Made by a program: the position numbers and the translations under genes. A stretch of DNA of 61,809 bases, filler included, from Diploschistes diacapsis (lineage: Eukaryota): the NCBI GenBank assembly GCA_023645945.1. It is 10 parts of 10 records of this genome, joined end to end, with 100 filler letters (N's around TTAATTAATTAA, not from the genome) between each part and the next. Parts side by side here need not be neighbours in the genome. Positions count along the whole stretch, not along the records: positions 34,345 to 38,195 come from JALAIB010001836.1; 9 more parts are not named here. One strand, 5' to 3'. Positions within the stretch are counted from its first letter, which is position 1. Each line of letters starts with the position of its first letter. Below are positions 15,408 to 57,996 of the stretch, in pieces. Under the pieces are notes generated by a model. The model worked only from the letters and a program-made list of their open reading frames with translations. It was not told the origin of the DNA and did not search any database.

Positions 15408-18400
15408 TGGTTTATACTTTTTGGGCCAAGCTTTGGAAGCAATACCAACATAGGTACTCATGTAGAAATTCGATCTTGGATCTGAGATTGCTCTCCTGGT
15501 TCCAATTCCGAGTCTATAGCACATCATGATTCCCTTATATCTTGCTCTAAATGAGATCCATATGAGCAGGCCACTAAGTAAGTTTTCCTCAAAGTCCATA
15601 CTCTGTGAAATAACATCTGACACTTTCACAGCTGCCTTGTTTGATAAAGATTGGTTCCGGTTCTACCGCCCACAATCACTCTATGCGTATCGCTTTAGCA
15701 TTCACCACAACTGTTTTATGAAATAGCGCCAGATTGTCCCTTTACGCTTCGCCCATACTACATTCACTCTCGATCCGTTTGATATCGTCTCACGATCTAT
15801 TCACCAAGCAGTTTGTGGATCTAAGTTCCAATATTGGTATAGTCAAACTCACAAAGGTCAATTTAAGTTGTCGTCTTCCTTCTTCTCTTTTTCAATACCC
15901 TTTCTTTTCTGCCCTACATACATTCATAGAATGTGATCTCTGCACCCTCGCCAACCCTTCTTATCTATCATTGAAGGGACATCATAACAACACAGAGGGA
16001 TTGTTACTAATTTGCTATTATCTCTGCAATGAATGCCATTCTGAGATGAGTGTTATTACTTCTAGTGCGTGGAACAGTTCGATATCTTAAGATAAAAAAA
16101 ATGCATAGGGGTAAAGGTAGCGCCTATTACTTTGCACATGGCCAGTTGACTAGCGAGATATGCTAAGGAGAGAAAAAGAAATGAGCTACAGCTTGCAACC
16201 TTTGCGATGTCCGACTCACTATCCCGCTTTTCGAGGCAAAGAAACTAACTATACAGGGCTTCTTTCCAACTGCTAAACGAAAAGCTGGCCGTGCATTAAT
16301 TTCTGCCAAATAAAAATCCAAAATTATCTTATGTATGAGGCTCTCGAGCGTTTCGTACACCTCGGATTTCGCCCGGCTTCTTGTATGGCCAAGATAACCG
16401 CAGCCTCCTCCTTTATCTTAGAGCTAAGATGGACAAAAAGTCATAAGAAGCAACCGAGTCGACGTCTGGGGTGATTCAATTAACAAAAGCGGAATATATT
16501 TAGGGCCTGTCAAGATTAGACACTAGAAAGACGACGAGGAGACGATGATATCGAATGATTGATTCATTGGAGTGGCCCAACGAGACACCAGAATTCACAT
16601 TTAAGACTCGATCTGAAGCAAGCTAAGGACGCAGGAGCACTGGTAGCAAAGATAACGTCGCGGCTTGACATGATAACTGTTTGCCAAGAAACAGGCGTGA
16701 AATGGCGGAAAAGCGAAAGGAAACGAAATAAGGGACCGGAAGTAATCTACGGGAAACAATGCTTTCAGCCAAACTAAACCAACGATAGGATCTAGCGGCA
16801 GGAAGCTTATGCATTTAAGGAAGAGATCCCCTTTACCTTTCTTATATCTTCATCATCAGAACTGTGGAACAAACCCACCACCTACCCCGGAGGGTAGGCG
16901 GAGGTCGATGTTCAGGGACTTCCTGAGGGCACACAGTATCCACAGACGCCAACGAGGCCAAGACATTCTAGCCTAGAAGTAATTTCTGAATCGAGACAAC
17001 TAACCAGAACCCCTGGCAACGACAGAGATGTACGCGACACCTATCCTGATGGACAATGGCCAAAGCTTCAAATACTATAAGTAATTTCATGGGCTTTGTT
17101 GAAATTTGTCCCACAACCTTGCAGACGGGGGGACGTACGAATATCCAGACCAGAACTGCCGCATGGAGCAATGAGAGCTAAGAACGTTCGTCGTACCGAT
17201 CTTACCCTGGTATATGGGCGTACAGGTAGACTATCAATGTCTAGACATAGCTGGAGCTGGAACGTGGAAATAAGGGTTTTTTGTACACCGAGACCTAGTT
17301 TCTGGTTTTTCGTCGTCATCGGGCCTGTATAACATGTATAGTAGTGTTCCTTATTCATTCGCTGCAGCTACATAGATTACCGGGTTGGGCGCCATCTCTG
17401 ACGTAAATGGACTGATCCTTTGGTGATGGAAGAACAGCTAAAGATTTTCAATCCGAAGACACGCGATGCATACTTCAAGAATTGGATAGCCGAAGCGACC
17501 ATAGCGTTGAAAGAGCACTTCTGTGCCATGAGGTCTGCGGAGTTTTCACGTGGGTTTTCTGCAAACACTATCCATTGAGGTTGATACCGTGTTCTTATCG
17601 AAGGGCAGTCCGTTATGGACGTTCTATCCAACTAGCGTTCCTCAACTACTCGCTGCAAAAGGCTGACAGGATATCATACACACAAAAATTATAGAAATAA
17701 AACAAGCTCACGAGTTGGCTAGCAGTGGCTGCCCGGCTGTGCTTAGGCTTAAGAACTGGTCGTGTACAGATGGGGGCTTGTGGAACTCTTAGTCCAAATG
17801 GCACTGTAGGCCGATGCCATGCAGGTTTTTGGACCCAAAATCCCAGTTGCCTGTGGATTTCCCGATGGTTCACGATCAACTAGAACATTATACCCATCGA
17901 TTATATGGATCTTTTAGACAACGAATGAAGGCTGTTAGCGATGTTTATCATCGCAAGCATGGATCAAGGTCCTGATTACTCCTCAAGATGCGGCAGCGCT
18001 TTTAGCAAACATAGCAGCGAAACACTTGGATAAAAAGCATTCCTTGGTCAATACTCTATATGATTTGGTTGAGATGAATTGACCATTTTCATGCCCAGCG
18101 GTCTATACAGTCCTGACGGATACCTGCACCCATATAAGGATCTGTAGAGCGAAAGATCAGACCACGGTACAGTGTTTCATAACTGGAATGATGATCGAGA
18201 TACACGGACGAAATCACTGAAGCTTAAATGCGAAAGGAAAATCCTGGGGGAGGGTTATATATTGGAGGTGGCGAGCATACAATTGAGTATACCGGTCATT
18301 ACTTCCTGCAATGATTTAAGCGCCCGGAAGATGAAAGCCAAGAATCAGAGCATAACCGAGACGTACTGGTGATACAAAGATTGATTTTGACGAATCTGAT

Positions 18401-21400
18401 CCATTTCGTCCCGTCCAATCAGTTGCAACTCTCGGGATATGGTGGTTGGGAAGAAAAGTCTCACAGAACTGCGAATTCCCCGAACGTATAGGATTGCTGT
18501 TTCTTCAGCAAATTAATATTAAGCACACAAACTATAACAAGCTTACTGGAAGGGACAACTTCGCCTTCGACAAGGTTTTTATGACTTCTCATCAGACTCA
18601 AACCGCCTGCGTTGCTTCGATTAGATGGCGCAAGGAGTATCTTAGTTTCGAGATGCAAAGAATTATTGGGAATGTTTATCATAGCGAACATAGATCAGTA
18701 CCAAACCGAAAGTTGACTCGAGGCCTTGAAGATAGAGGACCTTGCTCGCTTGTCCTATCCAAAATGCTCGGTTTTCCTACGCAGTCCTTTGTTGGTTTAG
18801 CTATATATAACGAGACATGGAGCCCAACTCGCGCAAGATTCTCAACATGTGAAATACAGAAGGGCAGGGCTCCTTGGCCACCTTGTTGTCAGCTGTCTTC
18901 GGAAACACCAGCCCCAGTTATCTACAGGCCGGAAACAAGCGGCTATGGTCCAGTAACCTATGTTCCAGCCAAAAGAGGGCACAAGAGCCACACAATTTGA
19001 CTGGTATCCTGCACGATATTGGCGTGTCAATGCCTTGAAAACCCGCTTGAAGGTCCCTTGCGGATATCAAACAGAATTCGTATATTGTTGATGAGGATTA
19101 TAGACATGGTAGGCGTGTCTCTTTCCTGCAGACTCAGTGACGCTGGTCTCTCTTGAAAAGGTTGGCACAGCTTTGAACTTGAGCAATGAGTTTGCTTAAA
19201 AATACCAGATTCAGTGCCGAAGTGCAAGTCTTGTGAAACTTGCGCTTAGTACATTGAAGGCTTGAACTGAGAGAGCTAGCATAATAGAAGTGGCGCAAGT
19301 TTCCGTATACAGATATTGAACTTCCTAGAGTTTCAAGCGCGAAGGAGAGTTCATGAAAGTTGACCTGACAAACTGGCTGTAGTCCAAAGAATTTAGACCT
19401 GCACTATCCTGGGAAAGAGGAAGGGTTAGAGATCGCATAGCTCGCATTTTGAGACAGGCTATCCAGCTACATGACATGGACCTAATAAGTATTGATTAGG
19501 TACACTGAGAGTACGAAACCTTCCACAAACCAGATAGGTTCTCTGCCGTTACCACCTTGCTTTCGATCGTCTAAGCTCTCTCGGATTCTTCAGGGTGGAA
19601 AATAGATCCTGGTACTTGGGCACCTATATATACCAGCCAGTCATGAAGAGTCCAGAAGTGAGATGCTCTCGAACTATGATAAGGATACGATAAACTTTGT
19701 CTGCGCCAGGAAACGAGAAGCCATCCAAATCCGATCTACCAGAGCTCGATCAATATTACCGGCTTGCGGACCATGTCGGGCTGCCCAATACTAGCGTAGA
19801 TAGGAATACTGGGGTCGCTCAAAGTTGTGAGGCTATGCTTGTTTCCATCGATTTTCTCTAACTTTTCCGTTCTCGGCTGGACATAAAAGGGTAATCACAC
19901 GGGAGAAGGAGGATGCTAGAAAAGAAAAACCATAAGAACCGTTGAGGGTATGGATGAGTCTTCAACCGATCATGATAGGATTGTATACCTACCACGCTGT
20001 TTCCAAACAGAGACAGGGACGATAAAAACAACCATCCCAAATTCGGGGATACGAGGAAATGGTGAGCTGAAAAGGACATCCCGCAAACCTAGCCAGTTAG
20101 GGAGAGCTACCCGTGAGAAATTCCGAGAACAGGGGGGTTTGGGGATGACCAGCAGCCAGCTAAATCACCTCGCTTGCTCGTCATTCTCTTAGGCTCTCGG
20201 GCGGACATGGTACTCATACCTGCGACATAAGCATATATGTTAGGTTTTGGTGGATAGCAGGGCTTGGGAACCGCTCAAGGCCGTACTAGGTAGGTGCTTA
20301 CCTCATTAAATCTCGGTATGCGAAATAAAAGAGAGCCAGAGGCAAGTTCCTAGAAAAGTCTGCGGGACGAGCGAGGGAGAGATAGCGGAGTGGTAGTGAT
20401 GTATTGACCTGATAAACTAGAGATGGATTCTTAATTGGAGGACAGAGTCTAAGAAATGGGACAGGATCGTCAAGGGAATCGAACTGACAGCATTGAATGC
20501 AAGCCAGGCTGATAAAAGGGTTTTGAATCGTCTTTCCTCCACTACACTAAAGGGGCAGGAACCACCACATCTTGTGGATAATCCGGCCCAGGCATATCGT
20601 CAGCAGAAGGACTCCGAGCTCCGACATGACCAATTTCACATGGATTTAGGTGTACAATTAACAGTTTTAAGCAAACTACGACTAGACAAAGCTGTGTTCA
20701 AACACGAACTTGAACAGGATACTTCCCGAGCAAAATCTTAAATCCAAGTGATAGGAGTATTACTATACTCTCCTGATGTCACTAACTTAACAGCTTACAA
20801 AGACATAATCTCTCTACGGCCTCGTCTGTGTCAGCTTCTTTGATATGTCTGGGCTCGATGATTACCAGATTTGCTGCAGATAATGAGATAATTTAGAGGC
20901 TAAAGAAGGCTCAAGGTTCGATTGAGGGACATAATGGATACCTCGGAAGAGCAATTTTGGAGTGAGGATTTCCGAAATCTCGAGCAGGAAACGAGTGTCT
21001 CATCTCGTCTGAACATAGGCACAAGGCATAGAGTGGGGGAGCAAGCAAAGCTCAAACTCATGGAATAGAAAGAGGAAGCTACATACTCACCGGCCCGTGG
21101 TAATACACTTTAAAATCATAATCCTGAAACACAAGCCGGAGATGATATATATACCGAAGTTAAAGCTACGGAACGAAGCACCGATCAAGTGTGAAAACCG
21201 GGCAGTTCCTCGGGGACCTGCTCTGCTGTCACTGATTCGGTGTGAGTATCTACCCGTCGTCACTTAACTATTCAATCGATTTTGCATCTCTAAGGAACAT
21301 GGAGAAGGAGTCCTTTTGGTGGAGTAAATAAACCTAATAGGATTGAGAAAAGAAGTGAAAGAACTGCATCCAGGAGTGTTGAGTTCACCGGATGTCCGGC

Positions 21401-24008
21401 TGGAACCCGGTCAGGAGACGGGGTCAACAAATGAGAAGAGCTTAGGACCGGCTATGCGTTCCCATCGAAGCCTCTTATTACAGATACAAGGTTGGCATCG
21501 AAAGCTATGAGGGACATATGCGGATCTTTCCGCTAAACTATTACATTCTGAGGAATCGGGTGGATGGAGGCAAGCCGTCGATGACAGGATCATCAGTGTA
21601 GAAACCAAACCGCATAAAAAGCGCCAGCCTCTAAGAGTAGTGAGGTAGCTGTATTGGTCCGTTGGTCTAAATAGTAGCAAGAAAGCAAGGGGTACATCTT
21701 CGTTTGTCGAATCTCCAGAGTCGAGCACTTCTGCATGGAACCGATCGAGAAGGAGATGAATACCGCATAGATATAGAGCACCTACCTACTTCCTTTTACT
21801 TTACCTAGAGCTTGAGCTTGGGGGTGAGCCAGCAAGGCGGCGCGCATGGTGCACCATCTAGTGACGGAGGAGGGCTGAGCTATCAAGTTGCGAGGAAAAT
21901 CGTGCGGGAAGGGGTGGTAGCCTTTCTAGGTTGGATTATCTTCGCTACATAACCCTACGGACAGGTCTTTGCTGCTGTATGCGCTGGGTAATCTCACCAA
22001 CAGAGCAATTTGACTTAGGAATCAAATTATGAGTGACCTGAGACAACGTAAGATAATATTGATAGGCCGTCGAAGTTATTCATAAACGGATGGAAAAGTT
22101 TAGGAAACAAGTTACTTGCGCTGAGCCAAGGAACAGGATGCACATCAGAGCTCGATGAAAGCGAACAGTTCTACGAAGGGAATCACGATGCTGGATGGCA
22201 TGATTCCCAGGACAGAGTCGGACTGGGCAGAACGCCCATCTCCCGTCAGCTGAAGCGTCTGGATCATATTTAGGATTTTAAAACAATCTGCTAAAGTAAG
22301 CAAACGTTCCTCCGGACCGGTTCCTAAGCCAATTATCGATACTACTCTTGATTCGGTAGTGTACTTACTACAAAGACTGGACACTGTTCTTCTATTATGA
22401 CACAGTATGATATTTATTTCACAAAGATGGTCTTACCGAACAAAAAATTGAGATTAAATCAGGAGAAGAGCATTGGCAATATCACAATTGTACAGAATAA
22501 CCGTAATATACATCTACGCACTTGCTTATTGAAATTTATATGCGGGTGGAGGAAGCCTTACTTATCGCTCGACTTGAACCAAGATGAGGTTGCGTCTCTC
22601 AGCAGGTGCAAACCCTCACGGAAAGCCTTCCAATGTCAGGCCGAGCTCCAAGCGTTACTGCTGAATGTCTAGTAGAAAGAAGAAGCTTGCTTGCCTCGAG
22701 TTCTGATAACGACGAGGCAGAAGTGTACCAAAAGTTCGTTCAAAGAAAAGAAGAGCCTTTGAAGGGAAGCCTTACTCTTTCTCCGCAAGATGTTGACGAA
22801 GCTAAGAGAGATGTTGTGATAGGTGATGAAAAGATTCCTGTAGGATCTCTACTCCAGATAACAGAAATGAGGAGCAACAGGCCTCATTATACCGTCTAAG
22901 CTTCCGCAAACAGCATTTGGAACCATTAAGGAACTGGACCAGGATTCGAGTTAAAGAAATGGGACTCAGGGTGAAGCAACGCAAAAGACGTCAGGAAACT
23001 CAGCTCCCCCCTTGCACGATTGCCTTAGAGTCGAACAGGCATGCTATGGCTTTCCCAAACCCTATACAGAAGACACCATCTCGTTTTTCTGACAGGGGGA
23101 AATTAACGAAAATCATCAACTTTGTTGGGCCACTTCGGGACTTGACCAACCACATGGAGAACTGGAAGACCTGTTGCTGAGTATACTTTTGTGGCAATAT
23201 AGGAGCCGACTGGGTCTCGGGAGTACATGTTGGATCCGCTGACAGCTGGGTCCCTTGAAGATCCAATGCCGATGGCTACAGGGGATTTCGGAGATCCTGG
23301 TGCTTAAACATTTGCGTTCTAGTATCACACTCGTACTACAGGAAAGTTGGGAACTTAATCAAAGTATTAGCGATTTCACCGCGCGTCAAGACCCGGAAAT
23401 TGTCATGTTTGAAGAGTTTTATTTTAGTATCTTACCCTTGTTACAGGGAACACCATTAAGAGTTGCAGTATAAGTGTTTGAGGGAATACAACAGCCTCGT
23501 GACTTTGACGCTTCAAGACTTTTGCTGTCACCCCCTTACTGTTATAGGGAAGATTGGAACATAATCAGAAGCTTTAGACTTCGCCGCACTTAGGAGAAGT
23601 CAAAAGATGATCCACCTTGTGGGAGAGCCGCTTAGGGTGTGTCCTAGCTTCTCGGCTAGCACACATGGGAGCAGACAAAGTGTGTTGTGACCACCGGACA
23701 GGCTGTTTAGTTTGCATGGTTATCAGACCTCTGTATAAAGGCATTCTCCGCATGTGTACTGGGCCAAGAGAAATTTTCAGGACAGCGAGCGGACTACTAC
23801 CAGATGTTTATTAGAATACAAAGGAAGCGTGGTGAGAGTAAGGCAGGTAACATAGACGGTTAGGTATCTGCCTGGGTTAGAAAATGCCGTCCTTCGAGAG
23901 ATGCAAGTCCTGGAATAGCAGTAGAATATGTTAGCTATGTTATTAGAGAGTCTCTTCATAATCTATAGTCGTGATAACAGTGCCTCGCAAATTTCAAAAG
24001 TCCGGTAT

Positions 24009-25523
24009 CTATCCAAGCGTAGCCGATACAAATGGCTTGACAAAGTCATCAATGACCGTCTGATTCCTCCAAGCAGTCCAGTTATGATTCAACAAGCCTG
24101 GAAGAACAGTCAGCAATTAGCTTCCTCGCCAACCCGGGGCGTTTACTTACCCCAAGTCTCGTCATCATCCTGCCTCCCTTGTCTAATATAGTAACTCCCT
24201 GATAATACCCACTGCATCCAACCTCCAGGCCCACCGGGCTGTGAAATAAGATAGCTTTTGAGACACTGCGCATACGCACTCGAGACGCTCCCATCTGTCT
24301 GGTCGAAGCCAAACTCCGTCATTACGACCGGCGCCTTGTTCGGATACGCCGGATCGCTCACGTTCATAGCGCCATAACCGTAGTTATACAGGCCCGGCTC
24401 GATATCGCTGCACGAGTCCGCGGAGTTTTGGTAATTGTGTACCTCGAAAACAAGCTTGTTTGCGAAGGGGAAGGTGGAAGGCTGGAAGTACTGACCGTTC
24501 CCAAGGTCCTGGCCGTTCGTGATGGCGGAGTCGTCAGTATCATAGTTCATGCCTGAGAAGAAAATAAGGGGGAGGCTGTTATTGGAATATACGCCGGTCG
24601 CGGCGGGGATCATGTTCTGATACCAGTCGTACCAATCGTCGGGGGCGGCGTTGTTGCCGCTGTCTTTGGCCTGGCGGAGCTCATTACGGAGGGACATGGA
24701 GGCTAGGGCTGGCCAGGACTTGGCCTGTGGGTGGGTGAGCTTGCATTGTAGCCTTGCGTCCGAGGCTTAGGGATAGGAAAAGAACTTACGTGGTTTGCCA
24801 TGTATCCGAGACCGCGCTGCCAATTGGAGACGTTGAAGTAAGTATCTAGACAGAAAGTGTCGGCATTTATGATTATGACGTTCAAGAGTGCTCAAACCTC
24901 CAAACCAAGCGTTCCCATCCGTCTCGCTGCAGCACCATTGTGCCTTGGAAACGTGGTTATCAAGGTGGACCCAGATTTGCTGGTTGGCGCATTCTGCAGC
25001 AATAGCGTCAAAAACCTGAAGGAGAAGGTCAAGATCAGTAGATTGGTCGTACTGAGAGGCGCGGATTTTGCACTCCTGAAACTCATACCTCAAGTCTAGT
25101 AGTTTGGGCATTGAAGCTTGGGTTATACTTGAGAATCTCTTGCAGAACCTCCGAGCCGTTGTTTGAGCCAAGGGCGTTGAGAAGCGTATTTTGTAGGGTC
25201 TGATTCGGGTTGCTGCTCGCAATATCATCGATCATTTCGATGGCATAGGTCAAGCGAATGACGTTCATCCCGAGGCTCTTAATCATAGAGATAATATTTG
25301 AAACCGAGTTATACTGCAGGCCTTCCGGTAACATGGTGTCTGCAGCACCTGGCCAGTTGAGGCCGGCATACAAAACATGCTGGCCAGAAGCGGAGACTAT
25401 ATCCCTTCCAGATGTTGTGAAGGGAGTGTCAGGCCAGGCACATTTCGCCGGCGTTGACAAATATTGGGGCAAGCTCAAGGCAGCGAGGCCTAGAGAAGAC
25501 AAGGAAAACAAGGAACCACGCAT
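24009..25523 (-). CDS. Secreted GH5 glycoside hydrolase (resembles subfamily 16 endo-beta-1,6-galactanase), 5 exons
   Basis: Signal peptide. Motifs GLNWPGAADTMLPEGLQY, GMNVIRLTYA, VHLDNHVSKAQWCC, MSLRNELR (acid/base Glu), FEVHNY and VMTEFG (nucleophile). Exons 25523-25089, 25015-24898, 24845-24790, 24724-24151, 24097-24009. Confidence 0.9.
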
Positions 25524-26473
25524 ATTGTTTGAACTAATAGCCAAGAAGAGGAGAAGGAGATTCGAAAAATAGGCAGAGATGGTAAAGACGAGATATTCAG
25601 AGTGTTGAACATAAGAAACGGTTGTAGTGGGACCACGACGAGCACCGACCACTTGTCACGTTTACCTTGACTGTGTTCCTCGACCGCAATCCTGGGCTTC
25701 ACCTTGTCCATTTGAACGACATGATGGGGAGCAGCCGCAGGGCTAACGCGTGACATAGGCAACTGCCAGATAGAGAGGCCACCGGTCGGAGCTCCGATAT
25801 GACAATACTTCTCTAACGAGGTGAAGTAGCCTTGACGATCTGCGGAGAGAAGTGATGTCTCGGAGTCTCCACCAATAGGGGTATCATTGTCTCGCTTCAT
25901 AAGGTGCGGTGGGGGAAACCTCTGTTCACGGTCATCTGTACAAGTAACCCACTGCAACTGAACACGCCGTGGCTTTTTCGGATCGGGTCGCTGGCCGACT
26001 GCAAAAGGTCATTTATCTCGTACGGTGCTCGCACCACTGCCTCTAATACGAAACAAGCCTAAGCACGCGTTAGATGTTGGGGTGACAAATGTCGTGAGTG
26101 TGAGCGATGTACAGTGTAAGGGAAATACATTGTGACTTGAAGGAGTGGCCCCCCTTCAACTCCAGCCCCCGCCAACGAATGATGATACCGAGTCCGCCCT
26201 GAGTAAACACCATTTGCCACCTGCAACTCCAACTCAAACCACCACAATCTCCGCCACCCGAAATCTCCAACATCAAGAACACCCCCAGCGTAACCCAAAT
26301 GTCCTCTACAACCACCCCCCGACCCACACCCACCTCCTCNNNNNNNNNNNNNNNNNNNNNNNNNNNNNNNNNNNNNNNNNNNNTTAATTAATTAANNNNN
26401 NNNNNNNNNNNNNNNNNNNNNNNNNNNNNNNNNNNNNNNCCCCATTGGCTTAGTAGTTAATAGTTATCCCTTT

Positions 26474-29500: not shown

Positions 29501-30392
29501 GAAGGACACCCTTTCTTTTTTCTCCCATTGCCCTAGATACTTGGTTGCTGCTTTATCCCCGTGGGCGTGGGCGTCGGGGGATTATGACGCCCCGACTCCC
29601 CGGACCAGTTTAGCAGGAGTTAAATCCGACTAAGCGCTACCTCAACAACAATCTCTGCAAACGGGATGTGTGACTAGTGAGCCAGTCACGCTGCCACGCT
29701 CCAAAGGGACGTGCCTTTATTGTGCTGGCCGTACGTGCGTACGTGCATAGAACGTTCCTCCGGCATGTTTTGCAACGGTTCGACTACTTCTGGGAATGAT
29801 GAGAAACAGAGACGAAACCTTTGCTAAGTGTTGGGCTGGCTGGCGGCGGTACAATATAACCAGCCCACCAGGGGGAGGAAGAGAAACTTCGATGCGCTGA
29901 GGTGAATAATCAGGTGTTGGAACGTATGTAAGTTATGTAAGCACGAATTTCATCCCAATTCCCCCCGTCCAGAGTCCTCGTAACATTTTCCCGCCAAGGA
30001 TAATGGATAGCCCACGAAAAAAGCTCGAGCAAAGAGCCCGGAATACCGGAGGGGGAGATTGCTTCCAACGAGACCTACGGCCCCCCAAGAGAGGGCAAAT
30101 GAAAACCAGTGTTGAGACACATAATTAATATCCCACGGAGCCGGTAAGCTACGATGCGCAACAGAGATGGTTCAAGTCGAGATGATGATGTTTGTAGTGG
30201 GTTAATGATCAGTCGCAATGATTACTGCATTGGAACGGGAGCCCTGATGCAGCTACTTATGGAGAGATACTATAATCTAATAGTAGTAGCATNNNNNNNN
30301 NNNNNNNNNNNNNNNNNNNNNNNNNNNNNNNNNNNNTTAATTAATTAANNNNNNNNNNNNNNNNNNNNNNNNNNNNNNNNNNNNNNNNNNNN

Positions 30393-31764: not shown

Positions 31765-32839
31765 TTATTTAAAATATCATCCTTTTATTTAAATAATTTC
31801 TTCTTTAACTTTTCGAATCGAAACCTTCTATCTTAGAAATGCATGATGTGTAATCCTTCCAGACCAGGCCAGCCCCTAGTAGTATAATATCTTTTCCTAT
31901 ACTAGCGTTTCAAATCTTCCACAAATGTTGGATTTCTAATTTAATATTATTTAGGCCTATAATTTACTATAATAATAGACTTAATTATGCAGTGTTGAAA
32001 GTGGAAGTGGGGTGACTAAATAGACAGTGATAACTAGTGAAATAGGTAGCTTGGATATAACAATAATGCATTATTATTGTAGGAGGTAGAGAATGAAGAT
32101 GAAGATAAATGGATGGAGATGAAGATTAGAGCTATAGATGGTGGGAGATGAAAGATCTTTTGTAGATACTTTCACCTGATTAATCTGTCGATAATTCGTC
32201 GTTAATATCAAGGTTAATCGAGTTAATAAGACCATCAGCGTCTTTCAATCACTATATTATTTAATTTATGCGATAGTGGTAGTTTGACTTTTCTTCTTTA
32301 TAATAAGTTTAGTTAATAAAGATACATTCTCACGCGGGCTTTATTACTTTATATACATGAATTATTATCGCTCGTTATATAAACATTATTATCAATTTTT
32401 TTTGAAGAAACTAAAAATACTTAACCCCCTAAATTAAATTAAACTAAGAAATATCACGACGTGATATTTATTTAAATTAAAATAATAGACTTACGAAAAA
32501 TAGCTCGCTAAAACTGAACCCGATATTGAATTTAACCAGAAGATTCCTAAGAAGATTTTTATTAAAAAACTTCGAATAACGAATCGAAACTGAACGATAA
32601 ACCTAAATTACACGAATTAAATTAAGATAACGATTCTCGACGCATAAGAATCATTGATCGACCTACTAAATCAAAACGATAGCACAAAATAAATACTCGA
32701 ATAAATAAATATTACCGGATATACCAAGACGGTTATCGCGAAGCAAGTATTTGACTAAATAATACTAAAGAATGCCGAGCTCGCAGAAGCTCGTGGAATA
32801 AAGGAGGGTTTTACGACAATAGAATCCGAGAATAAACGA

Positions 32840-33832: not shown

Positions 33833-33975
33833 CACAACATCACGAAAGGTTTTTCAAGCAATATTTTTTTTCTGGCGAAAGTGCCTGTGTCGCGGGTTTC
33901 GCCCATTTCGTCAGCTTTCGCCAACTTCGCGGATTTCGCGGTGTTTCGCCGCCAAAAACTTTTCGTGATGTAGTG
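33833..33975. mobile_element. 143-bp MITE-like element with CACTA-type TIRs
   Basis: Left CACAACATCACGAAAGGTTTTT versus reverse complement of the right end CACTACATCACGAAAAGTTTTT. Internal TT(T)CGC repeats. No clear TSD. Confidence 0.55.
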
Positions 33976-34344
33976 GTAGTTTGACTTTTCTTCTTCACAG
34001 TAGTTTTAGCTAAAAAGATATATTCTCGCCCGGGCTTTGCTGCTTTGTATATGTGATTATTATCGCTCGTTACAGCGAACGTCGTTTATATAAAGAAACT
34101 CGAAATTGAAAAAAAATAATCTTAAAAAAAGACTTTCTTTAAGATTTATAAAAAAATATGCTTGCTGTAATAGGACAGTTTCAGATGAACGATATAATCA
34201 AAAAAACACTTAATAACTCTATGTCATATTACCAAAGATGGAATNNNNNNNNNNNNNNNNNNNNNNNNNNNNNNNNNNNNNNNNNNNNTTAATTAATTAA
34301 NNNNNNNNNNNNNNNNNNNNNNNNNNNNNNNNNNNNNNNNNNNN

Positions 34345-34716
34345 CATTATAATGTAGATGCGCTAGATAGTTTTAAGCGAGCTTTTGAGCCCCACAACCA
34401 CACATAAAATTATTTGTACGAAAGGTGAAAATGTTAAGAAATATATTACGAAGGTGCAGGGATTGTAACCCGCTTTGTGGTGTAACCCGTTATGTGGTGA
34501 AACACGTTAGTAGATCTCTGCTGCTGACAAAGCAGGCGTGGTCGTCGGGATGTAGATCATGTAACGTGTTTCACCACGAAACGGAACACAATCCCTGCAC
34601 CTTCGTAAAGTGTATTTCTTAAAGGCCGAAGAACGGGGTAGTATGATTGAGAACAGATTTAACTTCGTACAAATATGGAAGCGCTTGATCTAACGCAATT
34701 ACATTATAATGTAGTG
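34345..34716. mobile_element. Foldback element with long imperfect inverted arms and a CACTA terminus
   Basis: Arms of about 34345-34510 and 34562-34716 pair through CATTATAATGTA, ATTTGTACGAA, TACGAAGGTGCAGGGATTG (perfect 19 bp) and GTGGTGAAACACGTTA. The right end is ...ATGTAGTG; the left end is clipped by the contig start. Confidence 0.75.
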
Positions 34717-34941
34717 ATCCGTTTCGTGGTGTGTTCCGTTTCGTGGTGAAACACGTTAGTTTGGGGGATGTACATGGATCGTGACTTCGCAAAATACAGT
34801 GGTATATTGTATGAATCTATGTTTTTACATTGTTAGTAGCCCGATAACCCCAAGCCTCGCCCTTATAGAAATGTTTTACACTCTACACTCTGCATGCTAA
34901 TTTGCTCTTCTAGCTTCCGTACTCGAATATCAGCAAAGGAC

Positions 34942-36780
34942 TCATATTCGCCATGCTGATGGCCCTGCACCAGGAAAGCCTTGCTGGCCTCTGTCTTGCG
35001 TGTATCTCTGCGAACCCCGCATGCTATCGTATGGCCCTCCATGGCCTTGCCCTTGACCTTGACCTCGCCCTTGTTGCGAGTGTTGTAAGAGCTCTTGCTG
35101 CTCAGGAGGTACGTAGCCCGGCCGCCGATGGGGTGGCACATATGCTTGGGGCACTCTAAACCCCATCACCGGTGGCCCAGCTATATTCTGAGGCGCTCCA
35201 AACCCCATCCTCGGTGGCCCACTTGTGTTCTTAGGAGGCAGGTACAGATCCCTTGGTAGAGGGGCACGGGGATGCAAAGGCTGACGAGAAGGACCGATGT
35301 TAGGAGCTGGGCCCCCGAACCCCAACGTATCATATGACGGAGGAGGCTCGATAGGGGTCGCTGATGCTGAGCTGCCAAGTGAAGGTGCAGGTGTCGGCAA
35401 CAGAGTATGCAGAGACGACACCCCAGCGTAGCCACTTGGGCCCGGAGGCGAGTAGAAACCAGCATCGAGGTACTCTCTAGCTCTTCTATTGCTTTGCTGT
35501 TGCTGGCCAACAGCTTGTGCCAGGTACCTCGACCTCTCCGTCTGGTACCTATCGATCAGCGTTTGCTTGCTCTCTAGCTCCTTCCGTAACGCTTCCATCT
35601 CTACCATCAGCTCTCTATTCTGCTTCTCCCTCTTCATGGACCATTTATAGGTCTTAGCCGCTTTGGCTCCCAAGCTGTCCACCGCTTTGAACATCCTTAT
35701 CCGCTCTTGTTGCGACCTTGCTGGCGACTTTCTTTGGGTTGGCATCTTTAAGCCCAGTTGTAATTGGCCGCTCACGTAGCTGACCATTTGAAGCTTTATC
35801 TGCTCGTACTTCGCTTCCTCTTTCTCCTTTCTGTCCCGAAGCTTATCTTGCTTCTTGTCATGCTCCTTCTTCGCTTCCTCTTGCGCTTGGGCAATCTCTT
35901 TCTTGAGTTTCGAATGATCTTCGATCTCATCCCTTGCCGACCAGGTCTCCGGGTCGTTGAATTCGAATGTATGCCGTTCCGTTTTAAACCATCTTCCAAC
36001 CAACGTCTCTATTATCCCGATGATCATGATCCTCTCCTGTTGTAGGGACCTATCTATCACGTTTGGAACATCCGCAAGATCGCTATGTAGAGTTGCCGCC
36101 AGCTTGTTAAAGTGTCCAGCTGCTAGCATATTATCGAGGTCCCTGTGCATCATTTGGTTGCGTTTGCCGTAGTTGATTACTGCCCAGACGCATTGCTCAA
36201 CGTCCAGACCGGCATCTTTAGCCGCTCTTTCTACAGCGTAGAGCTCGGGAAACTGCGCCGTTAGCATTCCAGTAGGCATCCAACGGTTCTGCTTCCTCTT
36301 CTGTGCTTGGGCTTGGACCTTTTCCCCGATATCGGTCCACCTATTGCGAGCACCAATGCGTTCGTGACCAGGGTTCTGGTTAGCTTCCGAGGTGATACGG
36401 AGATCATGACATATGCGCGCCAGATAATCTCCATACCGAGCATACATATGCTCTTTTCGGGCCGTCGCAAGGTCTTGGGTTTGTTCATACTTGTCGTCCG
36501 TCGGCAGAGCTTTTAACCACAATCTATCGTTCAAAGCCGCTTCATAATCTCTGATTTCACGCACCAGAGCTAAACGATTAGTTCCCTTAAAGCCATTCTC
36601 AGAAGCCGACAGCCAAGCATCGCAAGCACTACGATATACGGTCAGAAAGGTTTCTGTGATAGGAGTCACCTTGCGCGTCGTGGATCTCAACCTCTCCTCG
36701 GCATAGGCACGAGCATGACAGACCCTCTCCAGATTGTAGGCCTCATGAACCACCTCTGGTATCGGTATTGGCAGTTCCAT
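34942..36780 (-). CDS. Intronless hypothetical protein (~612 aa): helical-looking N-domain with an RNxxxH (HEPN-like) motif, coiled coil, Pro/Gly/Gln-rich tail
   Basis: Uninterrupted ORF from ATG 36780. YGKRNQMMH at 36145-36171. E/K-rich coiled coil. TATAAAA on the minus strand at about 36923-36929. Confidence 0.8.
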   Translation of the reverse strand: MELPIPIPEVVHEAYNLERVCHARAYAEERLRSTTRKVTPITETFLTVYRSACDAWLSASENGFKGTNRLALVREIRDYEAALNDRLWLKALPTDDKYEQTQDLATARKEHMYARYGDYLARICHDLRITSEANQNPGHERIGARNRWTDIGEKVQAQAQKRKQNRWMPTGMLTAQFPELYAVERAAKDAGLDVEQCVWAVINYGKRNQMMHRDLDNMLAAGHFNKLAATLHSDLADVPNVIDRSLQQERIMIIGIIETLVGRWFKTERHTFEFNDPETWSARDEIEDHSKLKKEIAQAQEEAKKEHDKKQDKLRDRKEKEEAKYEQIKLQMVSYVSGQLQLGLKMPTQRKSPARSQQERIRMFKAVDSLGAKAAKTYKWSMKREKQNRELMVEMEALRKELESKQTLIDRYQTERSRYLAQAVGQQQQSNRRAREYLDAGFYSPPGPSGYAGVSSLHTLLPTPAPSLGSSASATPIEPPPSYDTLGFGGPAPNIGPSRQPLHPRAPLPRDLYLPPKNTSGPPRMGFGAPQNIAGPPVMGFRVPQAYVPPHRRPGYVPPEQQELLQHSQQGRGQGQGQGHGGPYDSMRGSQRYTQDRGQQGFPGAGPSAWRI

Positions 36781-37000
36781 CGTTTGTGCAAGAGATCTTA
36801 AGGCTAGAGATTGTCTAAGAAGTGCTTCAGCACACACACTCTCTATCTGTTATGTTAACAAGTCTCGACGTAAAGAAAAAGGAGAGATGAAAGGTTGGAA
36901 AACTGGAATGGAGGTTTTATCCTTTTATAAAGTTCTGTGAGTCACATAGCAAACAGTTGTTCTATCGAACAGTCAGCTCTAGTCCGTATTCACATCTTCA

Positions 37001-37328
37001 ATGTTTTCTTGCTATCCGGCCTATAATGGTTCACCCGGTCTTGTCCATAGGTTTGATGTATCAGACGTGCAAGAGCCTTTTCGGAGGCTTGTTAGTCAGC
37101 GTCTTCTCAACAGAGCGATGGAACAAGTCAAGATCTCCTTCCATCTGCAGGCCATCTGTCCGTGCCAGGTCCGGTTCAATCCCCTTAAAGATAACCAATG
37201 AGACGGATCAGATTCCAAACATGGACCAGTTCGCCAATGACATTGGAGGATGTCCAGGCCGTTTTGACTTCTTTGAGCCCCGGTGCCGACGTCTTCGGAG
37301 GAGAGACACTGTTGCTGGGCATCTTTGA
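37001..37328 (+). CDS. Putative 94-aa small protein, 2 exons
   Basis: Exon 37001-37168, a 43-bp GT..CAG intron (37169-37211) and exon 37212-37328 join in frame. TATAAA lies about 75 bp upstream. Donor and branch site are weak. Confidence 0.4.
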
Positions 37329-37451
37329 CACACGTACGCAAATTTATATAAAATGGACCGTCCCCGCATGCCGTCACGTTGGCTGACACCAGGCGGCGCA
37401 TCTCGTCAAACCCATCGCAAGCTGCCGTGAAGATTTACAACATCTCCCGAA

Positions 37452-38195
37452 ATGCTGGGCAAAGTTAGCTTCGGCCTCGCAGCCATAGCCTGCCTTGCGA
37501 CAAAGACCTTCGCCGCGCCCACGATGAAGCGCCAATCAACCGTGCCGAGCTTCGTCATCGACTACGCGCCCCTAGTCGTACGTACACCCACTCTCACACA
37601 AGCAAAAGCGACAAGCTAACTAGCATGCGACAGTGGCTCGACGCAAGCGAAAGCTATTTCCCCGGCCCCATCTCCTCCCAGCTCCTCAACACCCAACCCG
37701 AAGTCAACTTCACCGCGGTCTCCGGCGCGCCCTCGCCCCTGACCCTCTCGAACCTCAACAGCCTCAACTCCCTCGGCGGCTCCAACGTCTCCCTCTCCTC
37801 GACCAACGACTTCACCAAGTACCCGGCCTGGCTCAACGGCACGAAGCCCGACAGCAGCGGCAAAGTGGCGGGCGATCCCAGCGCCGCCATTATCGTCAAC
37901 GACTACGGCAACGGCACGGTGTATGCGTTCTACATGTACTTTTATAACTTCAACGAGGGCAACATTGTGTTCGGCACGCCTGCGGGCAACCACGCCGGGG
38001 ACTGGGAGCACAACGCGATACTGTTCGAGAACGGCGTGCCGCAGAGCGTATGGTTCAGCCAGCACGCCAACGGCGAGGCTTTCACGTACTCGTGCGTCGA
38101 GAAGCAGGGGCAGCGCGTCGTCGGCTACAGCGCCCGGGGCACGCACGCGAATTACGCCATCGCCGGGGTAAGCCCTCCTCCACCCCCCCCAGTTC
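37452..38195 (+). CDS. Vps62/DUF946-family secreted protein (3' truncated by contig end)
   Basis: Signal peptide, YAPLV|WLDASESYFP (intron 37578-37633), AFYMYFYNFNEG, NHAGDWEH, WFSQH and YSARGTHANYA. Confidence 0.85.
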
Positions 38196-38422
38196 NNNNN
38201 NNNNNNNNNNNNNNNNNNNNNNNNNNNNNNNNNNNNNNNTTAATTAATTAANNNNNNNNNNNNNNNNNNNNNNNNNNNNNNNNNNNNNNNNNNNNATAAT
38301 AAATAACGTAATTGGATTTCGCAATTATAACGATAACACCTACCCGGAAACATTATTTTCAATACATAAACGCGACGGAATAATAAATTAACTCGGGTTC
38401 ATAACCTTTTAAACAACGCATA

Positions 38423-42146: not shown

Positions 42147-42246
42147 NNNNNNNNNNNNNNNNNNNNNNNNNNNNNNNNNNNNNNNNNNNNTTAATTAATT
42201 AANNNNNNNNNNNNNNNNNNNNNNNNNNNNNNNNNNNNNNNNNNNN

Positions 42247-44139: not shown

Positions 44140-46778
44140 CACGACGCCGAAACTTCACAAGCAGCAGGTCGAATGCTGAGGAGATAGGAGGGATGCCGTG
44201 ACGAGGGCTTGGTTAACGAAGAGTGCAGTGAAGGATCCGACGCACAACGAGTGTCAGCCTTCTGATTGAATGAGAGGTCTCGAGAAGCAGTTTACAAGGG
44301 AGTATGAAAGAGAACGATCGGTGCTCGGGCGGATGTGTTGTTGATGTCTGCTCCCATCTACATTGGGTTTCCCGGAGATATCCCATGCCAAGGTACTAGC
44401 GCGGCATTGGACAGCTAAGCGAAGATGCTTTAGCCAGCCTGACATCACGTGGTACGTTTTAATCCCGCGGTTTCACTACGGATTTAAGACTTAAATCCGA
44501 AAAGCTTGGCAGTAGACTTTTTATTTGTAAATCTGTAGCTACACAATTTCAACACACCCGGGCCTCTTTCTAAGTTCCCTTTTCGAAACGATCTTCAAAT
44601 TCTTATTATTCCAGCTTTAGTGCCAATGCTAATGACAACGGTTCGAAGCGACTTGCCGTCCTGCCATCAAACCAGGGGCTCTTAAGGATTTTCAACGAAC
44701 TCCTTGCGTATTCAGAATAATAGTTGCTATAACTGGCCTCTAAGCCTTTGCTCCAGTACAGCCCTTTATCGGTAATTGTCCTGTTATAATTGCCAACAAG
44801 CTCGCTTACCTTATTTCGGCGTGGCTTTATGTAGGTTTCCGAATTTCGTTGCTTCTCAGAAGGGTTTGCAGATACCGGTTGCAGTGATAGGGGACAAGCC
44901 TCGATGTGGAGATCCTATGTCGACAGTCTTCCGTGGGAGTTTGAGCTTCCTATCACTTACATTTCTTTTTCTCTTGGCTCCTACTTCAATTCAGGCGGTC
45001 AACCGGAGGGATTACCACTACACCCTCGTATCAAGCTATCAGATCAAAGTGTGAAACATTCTACAACATCAAAGCGGCCATTACCGGCCATCAGCCCGGG
45101 AAGATTTGACTAGCCAGGCGGTAGTGACGATCAAAGCACGATATGCGCTACCGATCTATTTGTCTCTGATGGAAGGATGAGCCAAGAGCTCATTGTGTAT
45201 TACCGGGAAGAAAGTGATAACGTATCTGGGCACAATATCACGACTCGGACAAACACCTATTGATCCATTGGCACGCTAGCGATGCACTGTCTGTATATTG
45301 CTCGGCGCAGAAGCAAAGATCACCAAAGAGCCCAGGTATCCTTGTACGAATTTTGTGGGGGCCTTTCCAGCCTCAGTGTTCGCTTTCTAGACGTCACGAT
45401 TTGTGGGAATTTGTTTCGAAATGCAAGACGCCTTCGATATTGACAAGCGTGTAGCTAGTGCTGTGACATCCTCATCTCGTTTTCACAGAGCGTGGTGGTG
45501 ATAATAGCTCATGGTGAGGGTCTGTACGTGATTTTACCAGACCAGATCGTTAAGTCCTGTGCAGCCTTACAGGAATCTAACCCCATCCTCGGGTCATTTT
45601 CCTCGATGGTGTAAAAGCTTTAAGATCCCATGAATCAGTGCTGTAGGCAGGGCTTAGGTTATCCTATCAAGCGTTTAATCAACCAGTTCTTTAGAGAAGA
45701 TATCATACGAAGACCAGAATAAGAGCCTGGGTCTTCTCTATGGCGAGGAACATTCCCAGTGAGCATTCAAAGGCGGCTTGCATGTCTTCCCGATAGGCAT
45801 CCCAAGCTTTCAAACACGATGTATTGAGCCAGATTAAACTCGCGCTCTCAAAGCACACAGTCATAATAGGGATTCGACTCAAATCGGCAGAATATCCGAG
45901 TTAATTTGAGATTTCCTGGAGGAAGTGACTGGGTCTGTCGAGGATCTGATTAACCGGGGGCAGTTATTCTGACCGAAATAAACGCTATTACATAAGTAAT
46001 TATCGGAGTTGACACTTCCGATCTTTCTGAATTTTCTATGTCTTCCCACTACATCTCAATATACGTGCACGGTTTATTTCAAGCAAAGAATATCGANNNN
46101 NNNNNNNNNNNNNNNNNNNNNNNNNNNNNNNNNNNNNNNNTTAATTAATTAANNNNNNNNNNNNNNNNNNNNNNNNNNNNNNNNNNNNNNNNNNNNGACC
46201 TAAAGCATCGAGGGCATCAAGAAGTTTTCAGCGCTTGGCAGCTGCACATTGGTCATATCGAAGTCTTAGGAGCTTCATCTTAGAGTAATGTATTGCTTAA
46301 TCTAAGTGGACGTCCTGATAATGTGCTTCGAAGTGAAGTAGTATGCCCGTGCAATTGTATACCAACGAGGCGGTACGACTGGCTATTATTACAACAAGGC
46401 GCGGTAGAATTCTGCACCTTGGATGCTCGGGACACACCTAGCACAAGACACTCAAGGCCTGTATATATTGGACTGTATGAGACTTTTTTCCATTTCTATT
46501 GTTGTAGCCGTCGTGATCGACAGGTGCAAGATACTGTACGGGATAGTATGATAACTCTACCTTCCTTGGCAGTGAACGATGCCAAGATAACCGCCACCCC
46601 CTAAACTCTCTCCCCACAAACTGATAATCTTTATCCTATCGGTTCCTTCCGATGGCCTGAGCTTCAACTCCGCTATTGAAGAAGCCAGTATGCGTTATAT
46701 CCTTGAAAATCCTCAGATACGGCCGCATATGCCTTCTGCTTCTTCTCTAACCTATCACGACCTCTGGAGGATGCGATC

Positions 46779-49573: not shown

Positions 49574-50141
49574 GTCTGGGGTGATGGGTCGTGCGTGCGT
49601 GCGTGCGTTGGGCTAGGTGGATGGGTGGATGGATGGATGGATATATAGATGAAGAAGTGGTGGTGGTGATGGTTTCCGATAGGGTGTTGGTGGGGGCGAG
49701 TGTATGTTGTGGAAGGAAAGGAACCGCATTCGCAGGTTGGTAGCAGATGCAGATAATTTCATCCCGGGGAGGGGGAGGCCTGTGGGCCGTGGGCCGTGGT
49801 TCATAGAGGTTGCACGTGCACGTAGCATGCGTCGTGTCTCTACCCGGGCGGGGCGGGTTTCCCTCTGCCATGATACGGACGGATGATTGGAAATAGCTCT
49901 CCTTTTTTTTCTCTTTTCCAATTTTCGTTTCTAGCCGCTGTCATCCATTTATTTCCCCTTTTTCCTTTCTTACTTTTCTCCCAACCCACTTCTATCTATC
50001 TCCTGACCCCCCTCACTCACTCACTCACCTCCCCCCCATTCNNNNNNNNNNNNNNNNNNNNNNNNNNNNNNNNNNNNNNNNNNNNTTAATTAATTAANNN
50101 NNNNNNNNNNNNNNNNNNNNNNNNNNNNNNNNNNNNNNNNN

Positions 50142-53976: not shown

Positions 53977-55946
53977 NNNNNNNNNNNNNNNNNNNNNNNN
54001 NNNNNNNNNNNNNNNNNNNNTTAATTAATTAANNNNNNNNNNNNNNNNNNNNNNNNNNNNNNNNNNNNNNNNNNNNTCGAGAGCAAAAATAAGGCAAATT
54101 ATGAAGAAAGATATGCAGAAGGAAGGCAATAAAGAAGAGGCTGAGAATGATATAGAAGCTTGTTCTTGAGCGTTGAATAGAGGTAAGAGTTATTATATTT
54201 TAATTAAAGATACGGAAAGTTCTATACGATCTTAATTAAGATTGATTAAGTATGTATAAACAGCGAATAATAGTTTAATAAATCAGATAAAAGCCCGAGA
54301 AAATTTTTTTAATGTTGTTTTGTTGTTAATAGCGAGAGAATAAACGATAAAAGCAAGTATTTTTTTAAGTTAATCCGAAACTGTCGAAGTCTTTCGCATG
54401 CGAAAGACTTGATACAAGGATGTTTTAAGCTAATTCGAAACTGACGGCCGTTAGTTTTCGTCGTTAGTTTCGGATAATATTTTCGATTTAGTTAAAAACG
54501 AGACCTTCAGAAAGTTACTGGCGTTCTAAGTTTTTGTTTTTTTCTTCGATAAACATTTTACGGTTTTTATTCACTTTATTAGCATATATAAAGATAATGG
54601 GCACGTCTCGTATCTAAAGACGGCATTACTGCTGCTTTTATCCTAGAATACGTGCACCTACACGTAAAGCGTATCCCAAGAAATTAAAAATTTAAAATAA
54701 ATATATTTTTTAGAACTACGGAATCATTTAATAATCGATATATTACTATCGAAGGCTTGATTGTTTTTTATATATATCGTCGTTAGCACCCATTTTATTA
54801 AATGGTGTGGTATTATCTTTTGTTGATAAAGAGGGACATCGTCTTGGTTATCGTAAACATCAACCGAGAAATTATTAATTTAATATTAATTCTTGCTACG
54901 TTTATCTGGCCTGAGAAGCTGCATGTTTGCATCAAATTTATACATCGTGGTTACTGTGACCAGGACTTATTGTAATAGCTATAGTACTACTAGGGAGATT
55001 CGCTTGTTCTTGCTGGGCTCGCTTGTCCCTGCCCTCGCTGGCGTCGCCTGTGACGCCATGGGACATAATGCCATTGGGCATCCACCCGCTTAGCAGCTAC
55101 AATAGTAGCTATAAAGAGCTCGCTGGTAGCCATAGCTTTTAAAATCTTATCTTCACTTTCATCCATAAATTTGAGTTTATACTGACATTTATCATCAATA
55201 TTACTTAAATAATATGAAGCGGGCCAAAGAAACCAGAGCCAGGTTCCTAGTTCAGGAAGCTTGGATGTACATCGTAGGAACGAAGGAAAAATAAATAAAT
55301 AAAATTATGAGATTAAGGACGGCAAGATAAGACGGTATAATAAAAATCCTAAAGATTTTAGAAAGAATGCTAATACATTTTAGAAGGGTTGTAATTGTCT
55401 TACTATACTGAGCACTTATTATGATAAATCATGGATTTGAACGCTACGGCGTAAAGTCAGGCTAGCAAATGGGCGTTTAAAGTGAAAATCGTTCCAGGTT
55501 GGGTGGAGCAATGAAAATTCTTGGGATGAAAAAAATGGGAAGAAACTTACTAAAGTAAGCAAGTGTTATAAAAAAAATAACGTTTGGATCAAAAATAAGA
55601 TTAATGTTTTAATATTTTTTACTTTGATAAAGCTTCTGACCTATGAAGGGAAGGGAAAGTGATTGATTCATATAGGCCTCTTTTAGTAAGGAGGTGGTCT
55701 TATAAGACAGGAGCGTTGATTACTGTCCTGTGGAGTACTTTACATGATTCTTTTTGCAAGAAATGCGGTAAAGATTTTAGATATCTTATTTTTTGTATTT
55801 TTTATAGTTTTTCTTTATATCGACATTTAATTCTTCTTATATTACTCCTTTATTTATATAAACTGATTAGATTTAATGTTTTCTTCTTTCCGCGTTATCC
55901 CGCCTGGTTAAATACAGGTTTGTGATTAATGTAAGAGGCGTAAAAT

Positions 55947-57677: not shown

Positions 57678-57996
57678 GAAATCCGTTTTTAATTATTATC
57701 GAGTTCGGAATACTGGTATTTGTTTATTTTATTTTAAGTTCTTTTTGGTTCTTGTTTCAGCTACTATTCCGTATTTCAGCGGTTATAATAGCCGTATAGT
57801 ATATTTAATTTCTAGCGTATCGTTTTAAGGGCGTCTTTTAATTATACGAGCTATTTATCGTCCTTTATATAAGTGTACGGGTTATTCGTTTATCAANNNN
57901 NNNNNNNNNNNNNNNNNNNNNNNNNNNNNNNNNNNNNNNNTTAATTAATTAANNNNNNNNNNNNNNNNNNNNNNNNNNNNNNNNNNNNNNNNNNNN

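Follow-up and report, generated by a model that had tools for sequence, protein, structure and literature searches.

An unannotated Pezizomycotina protein family with a conserved R-N-x3-H motif, possibly HEPN-like, encoded beside a Vps62-family gene in Diploschistes diacapsis

Introduction

In bacteria and animals, HEPN enzymes play a central part in defence and in responses to stress, and a second conserved acidic residue in helix 2, often in the form Ex3[KR], is found in many but not all of their families. Among fungi, toxin-antidote meiotic drivers are represented by the Spok genes of Podospora and the wtf genes of Schizosaccharomyces, in which poison and antidote are produced from one gene. 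Both kinds of system come into question for a gene of Diploschistes diacapsis that encodes a protein of 612 amino acids (aa), here termed P0001. The gene is situated on a 3851-nt contig (34345-38195, JALAIB010001836.1) within the window, the whole stretch of 61,809 nucleotides, filler included, taken from assembly GCA_023645945.1. A first-pass annotation of this DNA had proposed that the gene and a small divergent open reading frame (ORF) form a mobile HEPN toxin-antidote module. Our analysis points to a single gene, whose product belongs to a fungal family with a conserved R-N-x3-H motif and is tentatively read as HEPN-like.

The passages of PMC3710099 that deal with the fold define the HEPN motif as Rx4-6H in which the arginine is followed by a polar residue (N, D or H). 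In their account the motif straddles a helix end and the loop behind it, preceded by a helical insert and followed by a kinked helix, and motif loss is frequent in some members. The passages on the 2013 census in that paper, its full supplementary list excepted, name no fungal-specific family, and a literature search returned no paper on a fungal HEPN family of the kind described here. HEPN is also mentioned in a part of PMC12637454, in connection with the K28 killer toxin; this has no bearing on the fungal family.

Gene and Protein Family

The gene and its product comprise the following features (coordinates, strand, description, basis).

34942-36780, minus strand: ORF of P0001, 612 aa, intact and intronless, stop codon included (reading frame)
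35911-36780, minus strand: N-terminal family domain, predicted to be all-helical, residues 1-290 (homologue search and AlphaFold)
36145-36171, minus strand: Y204-G-K-R207-N208-Q-M-M-H212, an Rx4H motif with N after R (sequence, alignment, model)
36424-36438, minus strand: RYGDY motif, R115-Y119, in the long helix 95-133 (152-sequence alignment)
35461-35931, minus strand: charged K/E/Q/R-rich helical, coiled-coil-like region, residues 284-440 (composition, alignment, modelled helix 284-299)
34945-35460, minus strand: P/G/S/Q-rich low-complexity tail, residues 441-612 (composition)
35147-35230, minus strand: 2 x 42-nt tandem repeat in the tail (repeat search)
35332-35343, minus strand: PPSY (PPxY) motif in the tail, residues 480-483 (sequence)

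The first-pass annotation had described the ORF as intact and intronless, and it does run uninterrupted from 34942 to 36780 on the minus strand; within the window it is single copy. It is an ordinary nuclear gene of a lichen-type ascomycete, arranged head-to-head with a Vps62-family gene. Three sequencing runs were compared with this piece, and the fraction of sampled words recovered was 0.99 in a lichen metagenome that may be its source (X1), 0.44 in a second study (X2) and 0.21 in a rock metagenome (X3). The unique part of the contig, 34805-38170, forms one contig in run X1 with a depth of 90.5. All arguments from the neighbourhood of the gene are confined to these 3.85 kb.

A phmmer search with residues 1-300 against 1.84 billion representatives gave 329 matches at E<=1e-3, 176 at <=1e-10 and 17 at <=1e-30, and nearly all matches span the full 290-aa domain. 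Thirty representatives were looked up; nine clusters are named, each as a ‘hypothetical’ or ‘uncharacterized’ protein of Pezizomycotina. The named members, which include many lichen fungi, come from Thelotrema lepadinum (two paralogues), Pseudocyphellaria aurata, Geoglossum, Venturia effusa, Rhexocercosporidium, Alyxoria varia and Heterodermia speciosa. Judged by these homologues, the N-terminal domain of ~290 aa defines an unannotated protein family of Pezizomycotina. Pfam assigns no family to P0001 and gives only single stray matches among 58 aligned members; PADLOC and NCBIfam likewise do not recognise the domain.

Searches beyond this group were negative. The BFVD viral library contains nothing at E<=1e-3, a pattern scan found no prokaryotic relatives, and two scans of metagenome contigs, one with the family alignment and one with P0003, found no relative. 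Longer fused forms of 1078-3075 aa, including NLR-like ones, were not found, which is weak evidence. A profile search matched 5 of 401 Pseudomonadota genomes with per-genome E values of 2e-4 to 5e-3; the matched proteins are coiled-coil-like and lack the motif, and these matches were judged to be due to chance. One member, P0013 of Pseudocyphellaria aurata (615 aa), carries a Pkinase match (E 4e-19) after the family domain, which covers only the C-lobe at residues 477-603. This may be a real fusion, reminiscent of kinase-KEN proteins in reverse order, or a merged gene model or other artefact.

Conservation of the R-N-x3-H Motif

The sequence YGKRNQMMH, to which the first-pass annotation had drawn attention, is confirmed as residues 204-212. 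Its occurrence in one sequence is not significant: R.{4,6}H is expected 4.1 times in P0001 and is seen 3 times, and RN...H arises in 4.4% of shuffles of P0001. The motif therefore draws its weight only from conservation across homologues, which was counted in a 152-sequence alignment of family representatives. R207 is kept in 135 of 146 sequences, N208 in 132 of 146, H212 in 132 of 147 and Y204 in 135 of 147, and 112 of 146 have all three residues of the R-N-H triad. Conservation of R and H among homologues had been suggested as a check on the initial proposal, and its outcome is in favour of that proposal. The RYGDY motif is similarly retained (R 138/152, Y116 150/152, G 136/152, D 136/152), and an acidic residue of the family, E158 in helix 148-164, a candidate counterpart of the helix 2 acidic residue of HEPN families, is kept in 129 of 147 sequences.

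The pattern of triad loss is informative. Loss of the triad accompanies loss of Y204 (odds ratio 22.9, p 7e-6, uncorrected for kinship) and is not associated with loss of the presumed fold residues W280, Y15 and P40. The motif therefore behaves as one functional, dispensable unit. Such a pattern, as read from the alignment, would be expected of an active or binding site that has been given up by some paralogues.

Predicted Structure and Comparison with HEPN Ribonucleases

AlphaFold2 models were built with a 58-row family alignment, and gave a predicted local distance difference test score (pLDDT) of 91.3 with a predicted template modelling score (pTM) of 0.77 for residues 1-300, and a pLDDT of 90.6 with a pTM of 0.85 for residues 95-300. 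The modelled fold is all-helical. It comprises a three-helix N-terminal bundle (17-85), the RYGDY-bearing helix 95-133, helix 148-164, a helical hairpin (170-189), helix 194-207, loop 208-214, a kinked helix (215-221 and 224-241, with D234) and helix 244-264. The charged coiled-coil-like region that follows is homologous across the nearest subfamily in the alignment. In the models, helix 194-207 stops exactly at R207, and N208 to H212 lie within loop 208-214.

P0001 has R207-N-Q-M-M-H212, with the polar N after R that the HEPN definition asks for, and the modelled layout matches point by point the HEPN description in the fold passages of PMC3710099. Helix 194-207 may be the counterpart, in the model, of HEPN ‘helix 3’. 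As compared with HepT/DUF86 (PF01934), Abi_2/AbiD-F (PF07751) and the KEN domain of Ire1/RNase L, the fungal family has the same Rx4H with N after R, conserved among its members. In terms of those same passages, it also shares the placing of the motif at a helix end and loop of an all-helical domain, the insert before it and the kinked helix after it, and the loss of the motif in some members. On the strength of the motif, of how well it is conserved and of its place in the predicted secondary structure, a HEPN-like RNase or RNA-binding domain, carried on a coiled-coil, PY-motif protein, is the best single reading of P0001; as far as sequence and model go, we would put it somewhat short of an even chance.

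A protein-language-model atlas points in the same direction. Its nearest named clusters are all HEPN, namely Csm6 (0.89), RnlA-type (0.86), RiboL-PSP (0.84) and Cas13a (0.83); nine of the ten best named matches fall into one clan, and the third match of an unrestricted search is a DUF4145 cluster (0.88). All of these scores lie below 0.9, a range that the tool treats as no more than a lead, and the motif itself may be the source of the signal.

Several results weigh against a HEPN assignment. The structure search for a HEPN fold that the first-pass annotation had called for was not positive: no solved HEPN structure appeared in the Foldseek, VIA wide or VIA second-look searches for two confident models, and the best Z, 5.7-5.8 for residues 95-300, was to generic helical proteins. 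No HEPN family of Pfam, PADLOC or NCBIfam was found in any of the 58 members scanned, and there was no match among PDB sequences, either by single sequence or by profile. The fungal domain, with ~290 aa, is about twice the typical HEPN size and possesses a separate N-terminal three-helix bundle. In 34 of 146 representatives (23%) a triad residue is missing, and the triad is broken in four of the eight nearest relatives (P0004 R>W, P0005 and P0008 H>R, P0006 H>Y). The position of the acidic residue E158 is occupied by Q in P0001, a further difference from the HEPN RNases named above, and in five of its seven nearest relatives. The context also differs from theirs, being eukaryotic and solitary, with no MNT, antitoxin or kinase partner.

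Profile comparison is a further point on this side, with a limit of its own. HEPN profiles were prepared from bacterial genomes (HepT-like 30 sequences, DUF4145 12, Abi_2 27, HEPN PF05168 25), and hhalign gave the fungal family 0.1-2.8% against the four; this is a weak test, as four of six true HEPN-HEPN control pairs also remain at <=2% (of the other two, HepT-HEPN reaches 70% and one 8%). True pairs mostly go unrecognised, and the test is therefore underpowered to decide. Against a single RnlA sequence the hhalign probability was 0.18%. The best local profile alignments, with HepT (21 columns) and Abi_2 (6 columns), place RN-x3-H on RN-x3-H in register. Similarity of fold or profile to HEPN RNases was detected in none of the Foldseek, VIA, library and hhalign searches. 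A homodimer prediction for residues 1-300 scored 0.00 against a mark of 0.32, with the controls unfolded and the family alignment unused, and carries no weight in either direction.

Nearly as likely as the HEPN-like reading is that P0001 is a non-catalytic helical scaffold or adaptor, in which RN-x3-H would serve structure or binding within a fungal-specific, non-HEPN fold. Such a protein would act through its coiled coil and PY tail, for example as an adaptor or substrate of Rsp5, or as a cytoskeletal or spindle-associated protein. This possibility is favoured by the lack of a fold or profile link to HEPN in the searches and by the 23% of representatives without a triad residue. The most constant positions of the alignment also lie outside the triad (Y116 150/152, D234 140/143, W148 144/148, P40 126/129). 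A polar R-N-x3-H that is conserved and sits in a loop behind a helix would, however, be unusual for a purely structural role, and the loss of the motif as a unit with the fold residues kept resembles families with inactive enzyme paralogues.

The tail bears on the same question. PY motifs (PPxY) couple proteins to Rsp5-type WW-domain ubiquitin ligases, and the PPSY of P0001, which is preceded by a conserved ‘Y...G.xSPP’ stretch, may by analogy be a binding site for a ligase of this type. PPxY aligns in register across P0001, P0005, P0006 and P0009, four proteins of the nearest subfamily, as a scaffold would suggest, whereas family-wide it occurs in 6 of 104 tails versus 3 of 104 shuffled tails. 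One member bears the UniRef name ‘Sfi1 spindle body domain-containing protein’, which would suit a spindle-associated role, but this is an automatic and untested label.

Returning to the HEPN-like reading, the conserved Y-x-x-R-N-x3-H would form a HEPN-like, metal-independent site for cleaving or binding RNA. About a quarter of the representatives, having lost the motif, would be non-catalytic. The coiled coil would pair two such domains, and the PPxY tail may link the protein to an Rsp5-type ubiquitin ligase. In this reading the protein has no antidote partner, and its gene is not cargo of the adjoining foldback repeat. If this reading is true, filamentous and lichen-forming fungi carry a sizeable undescribed RNase family, which would open a new way to study RNA-level defence or stress control in fungi; if it is wrong, P0001 represents a conserved fungal protein of unknown function.

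Divergence in a Close Relative

The second study (run X2) contains a close relative that is ~98% identical across the locus. Its copy of the large gene has a 1-base deletion at 36324 (codon 153), in a T4C4 run on a contig with a depth of about 91, which causes an apparent frameshift upstream of the motif; in that strain or species the gene may have become a pseudogene. Other changes in the large ORF are Y204S, K206E and R147T, as well as an in-frame 3-base loss in the tail. Among 40 of 111 differences listed, 31 are substitutions in the ORF, 20 of them non-synonymous and 11 synonymous; the ratio is 8 : 8 in the N-terminal domain and 12 : 3 outside it. An 11-base deletion at 35802 in run X3 was set aside, as the depth there is 3.1 and the data are error-prone.

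Together with the triad losses among the nearest relatives, the changes in X2 point to weak constraint and to a gene that can be lost. The 612-aa gene thus looks dispensable and fast-evolving. Its GC content at third codon positions (GC3) is 0.53-0.56, as against 0.79 in exon 1 and 0.88 in exon 2 of the Vps62-family neighbour; among the possible causes of this gap are low expression, relaxed selection and a different origin.

A bolder proposal makes P0001 the first example of a new family of eukaryotic HEPN-like RNases without a solved structural neighbour, Pezizomycotina-wide and with several paralogues in lichen fungi, that would take part in biological conflict, for example in antiviral defence, in allorecognition or in RNA cleavage under stress. 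A family of this kind would explain the frequent loss of the active site, the odd codon composition and the apparent frameshift in X2. We consider the whole of this proposal unlikely.

Divergent Intergenic Region and Small ORF

Two features lie between the large gene and its neighbour.

36781-37451, strand not applicable: divergent intergenic region, 671 bp, GC content 0.47, contains TTTTATAAA at 36923-36931 (sequence)
37001-37168 and 37212-37328, plus strand: 94-aa ‘spliced ORF’, judged non-coding (ORF scan)

The first-pass annotation interpreted this arrangement as a two-gene module, in which a HEPN RNase toxin is paired with a divergent, spliced 94-aa antidote of selfish or allorecognition function. 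Certain observations agree with it. The small ORF does start with an ATG at 37001, 221 bp from the ATG of the large gene and on the opposite strand; the AT-rich element TTTTATAAA, described at first pass between the genes, is present at 36923-36931 and would be shared by both; RN-x3-H is conserved; and in X2 the large gene is apparently frameshifted and the small ORF broken, which a proponent could read as joint decay.

The coding nature of the small ORF, in contrast, did not hold up. Within 37001-37401, five ORFs of >=50 aa overlap on the two strands, this one among them, and it lies as a whole inside the 671-bp divergent promoter region. The GC3 of its two ‘exons’, 0.52 and 0.46, equals the local intergenic background. 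The proposed intron, 37169-37211, reads GTCCGG...ATCAG over 43 nt without a CTRAY branch site. Its donor, its length and the missing CTRAY fit the fungal splice consensus poorly, whereas that consensus is matched by the intron of the Vps62 gene 200 bp away (GTACGT...GCTAAC...CAG). The ORF has no Pfam family, and no homologue was found among 5.8 billion clusters in the searched length range of 36-116 aa. In run X2, 55 letters replace 3 at 37094-37098 within exon 1 (net +52, a frameshift; single bridging contig), and one extra base stands behind 37192.

The small ORF is judged non-coding because of its background GC3, its poor splice signals, the missing homologue and Pfam family, and the net +52 in X2. 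On these sequence features we conclude that the stretch is probably non-coding promoter or 5' untranslated sequence. The antidote gene is thereby not upheld, and with no supported small partner gene the toxin-antidote module, whether in selfish drive or in allorecognition, falls as well; we regard it as very improbable, and as the least probable of the explanations considered. The likeness to Spok and wtf is that of a fast-evolving, losable fungal gene with a nuclease-like motif and a coiled coil. The differences are that a separate antidote ORF, unsupported, was proposed here, that the gene is at unit depth, and that nothing bears on drive.

Adjoining Foldback Repeat

The 3' side of the large gene is occupied by a repeat resembling a miniature inverted-repeat transposable element (MITE).

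34345-34716, strand not applicable: foldback (MITE-like) multi-copy repeat (inverted-repeat search and read-word depth)
34714-34760, plus strand: extra copy of the foldback inner arm, 3' of the large gene (repeat search)

The outer arms of the foldback, 34345-34368 and 34688-34711, measure 24 nt and are 88% matched, and the inner arms, 34446-34492 and 34562-34608, measure 47 nt and are 85% matched. The right end reads CACTA on the minus strand (34712-34716); the left end is incomplete because the contig start cuts there. A second copy of the arm beside the large gene, seen at first pass, is verified at 34714-34760: this segment is 81% identical to 34465-34511, and 29 nt of it (34730-34758) are 100% complementary to 34562-34590. 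A search with the inner arm gave 3 matches in the window, all in the 34345-38195 contig, where 0.02 were expected.

The repeat is abundant in runs X1 and X2. The summed word depth of 34345-34860 is 4,662-24,364 in X1 versus 90.5 for unique sequence, and 15,982-124,488 in X2 versus about 82. These sums, 50 to 1,500 times the unique flank, indicate recurrence on many contigs and not copy number. Many diverging continuations leave the repeat at 34509 and 34758. The segment 34345-34860 looks like an abundant MITE-like family of the fungus or of the community. It resembles MITE-type fungal foldback repeats in its ~370-bp size, its terminal and internal inverted repeats and its recurrence in two independent runs; here, however, it flanks the gene on one side only.

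The gene, or the supposed pair, could have been carried as cargo of a CACTA-like or foldback transposon and inserted beside the Vps62-family gene. The multi-copy foldback with its CACTA-reading end, adjoining the 3' side of the gene at 34345-34760, and the GC3 of the gene (far from the 0.88 of its neighbour) speak for such an origin. Yet the repeat arms and the terminal palindrome were found nowhere outside 34345-34760 in the contig or the window, and none lies between the gene and Vps62. The repeat is on one side only, and the gene is therefore not bracketed by element ends. The 612-aa gene has the same depth as the Vps62 flank (90.5), whereas the summed depth of the repeat is at least 50-fold higher. 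None of the contigs in runs X1, X2 and X3 skips the gene in the way expected of an empty site, the X2 pieces are collinear over 34767-38186, and there is no transposase. That a contig ends in a repeat is the usual behaviour of short-read assembly. With a one-sided repeat and a gene-Vps62 order that is collinear in the second study, the mobile-element claim of the first-pass annotation is not sustained, and carriage as cargo appears very improbable.

Vps62-Family Neighbour and Composition of the Window

The neighbouring gene is divergently transcribed.

37452-38195, plus strand: Vps62-family gene, exon 1 37452-37577, intron 37578-37633, exon 2 from 37634, cut by the contig end (Pfam, frame)

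It matches PF06101 with 33.1 bits against a cut-off of 22.1 (E 2.7e-8). The small ORF stops at 37328, 124 bp before the Vps62 ATG at 37452, much as the first-pass annotation had stated; the insertion of a gene pair at this point, which had been drawn from the short distance, receives no support from the order of the large gene and Vps62 in X2, which is collinear.

The window as a whole is an artificial chain of separate contigs, between which nine spacers of the form N44-TTAATTAATTAA-N44 are placed.

26340-26439, 30293-30392, 34245-34344, 38196-38295, 42147-42246, 46097-46196, 50042-50141, 53977-54076 and 57897-57996: spacers

The pieces that lie wholly within the window are ~3.85 kb each and are apparently ordered by length. 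A finding that extends across a spacer fuses unrelated DNA, and the separate contigs may derive from different organisms of a lichen metagenome. Because the window is such a chain, the AT-rich DNA to the left of 34245 is unrelated to the gene. This preceding contig, with a GC content of about 0.30-0.36, contains a 46-nt direct repeat (32274-32319 and 33971-34016) and a small foldback of its own at 33833-33975, with 22-nt arms that are 91% complementary and a right end that reads CACTAC on the minus strand.

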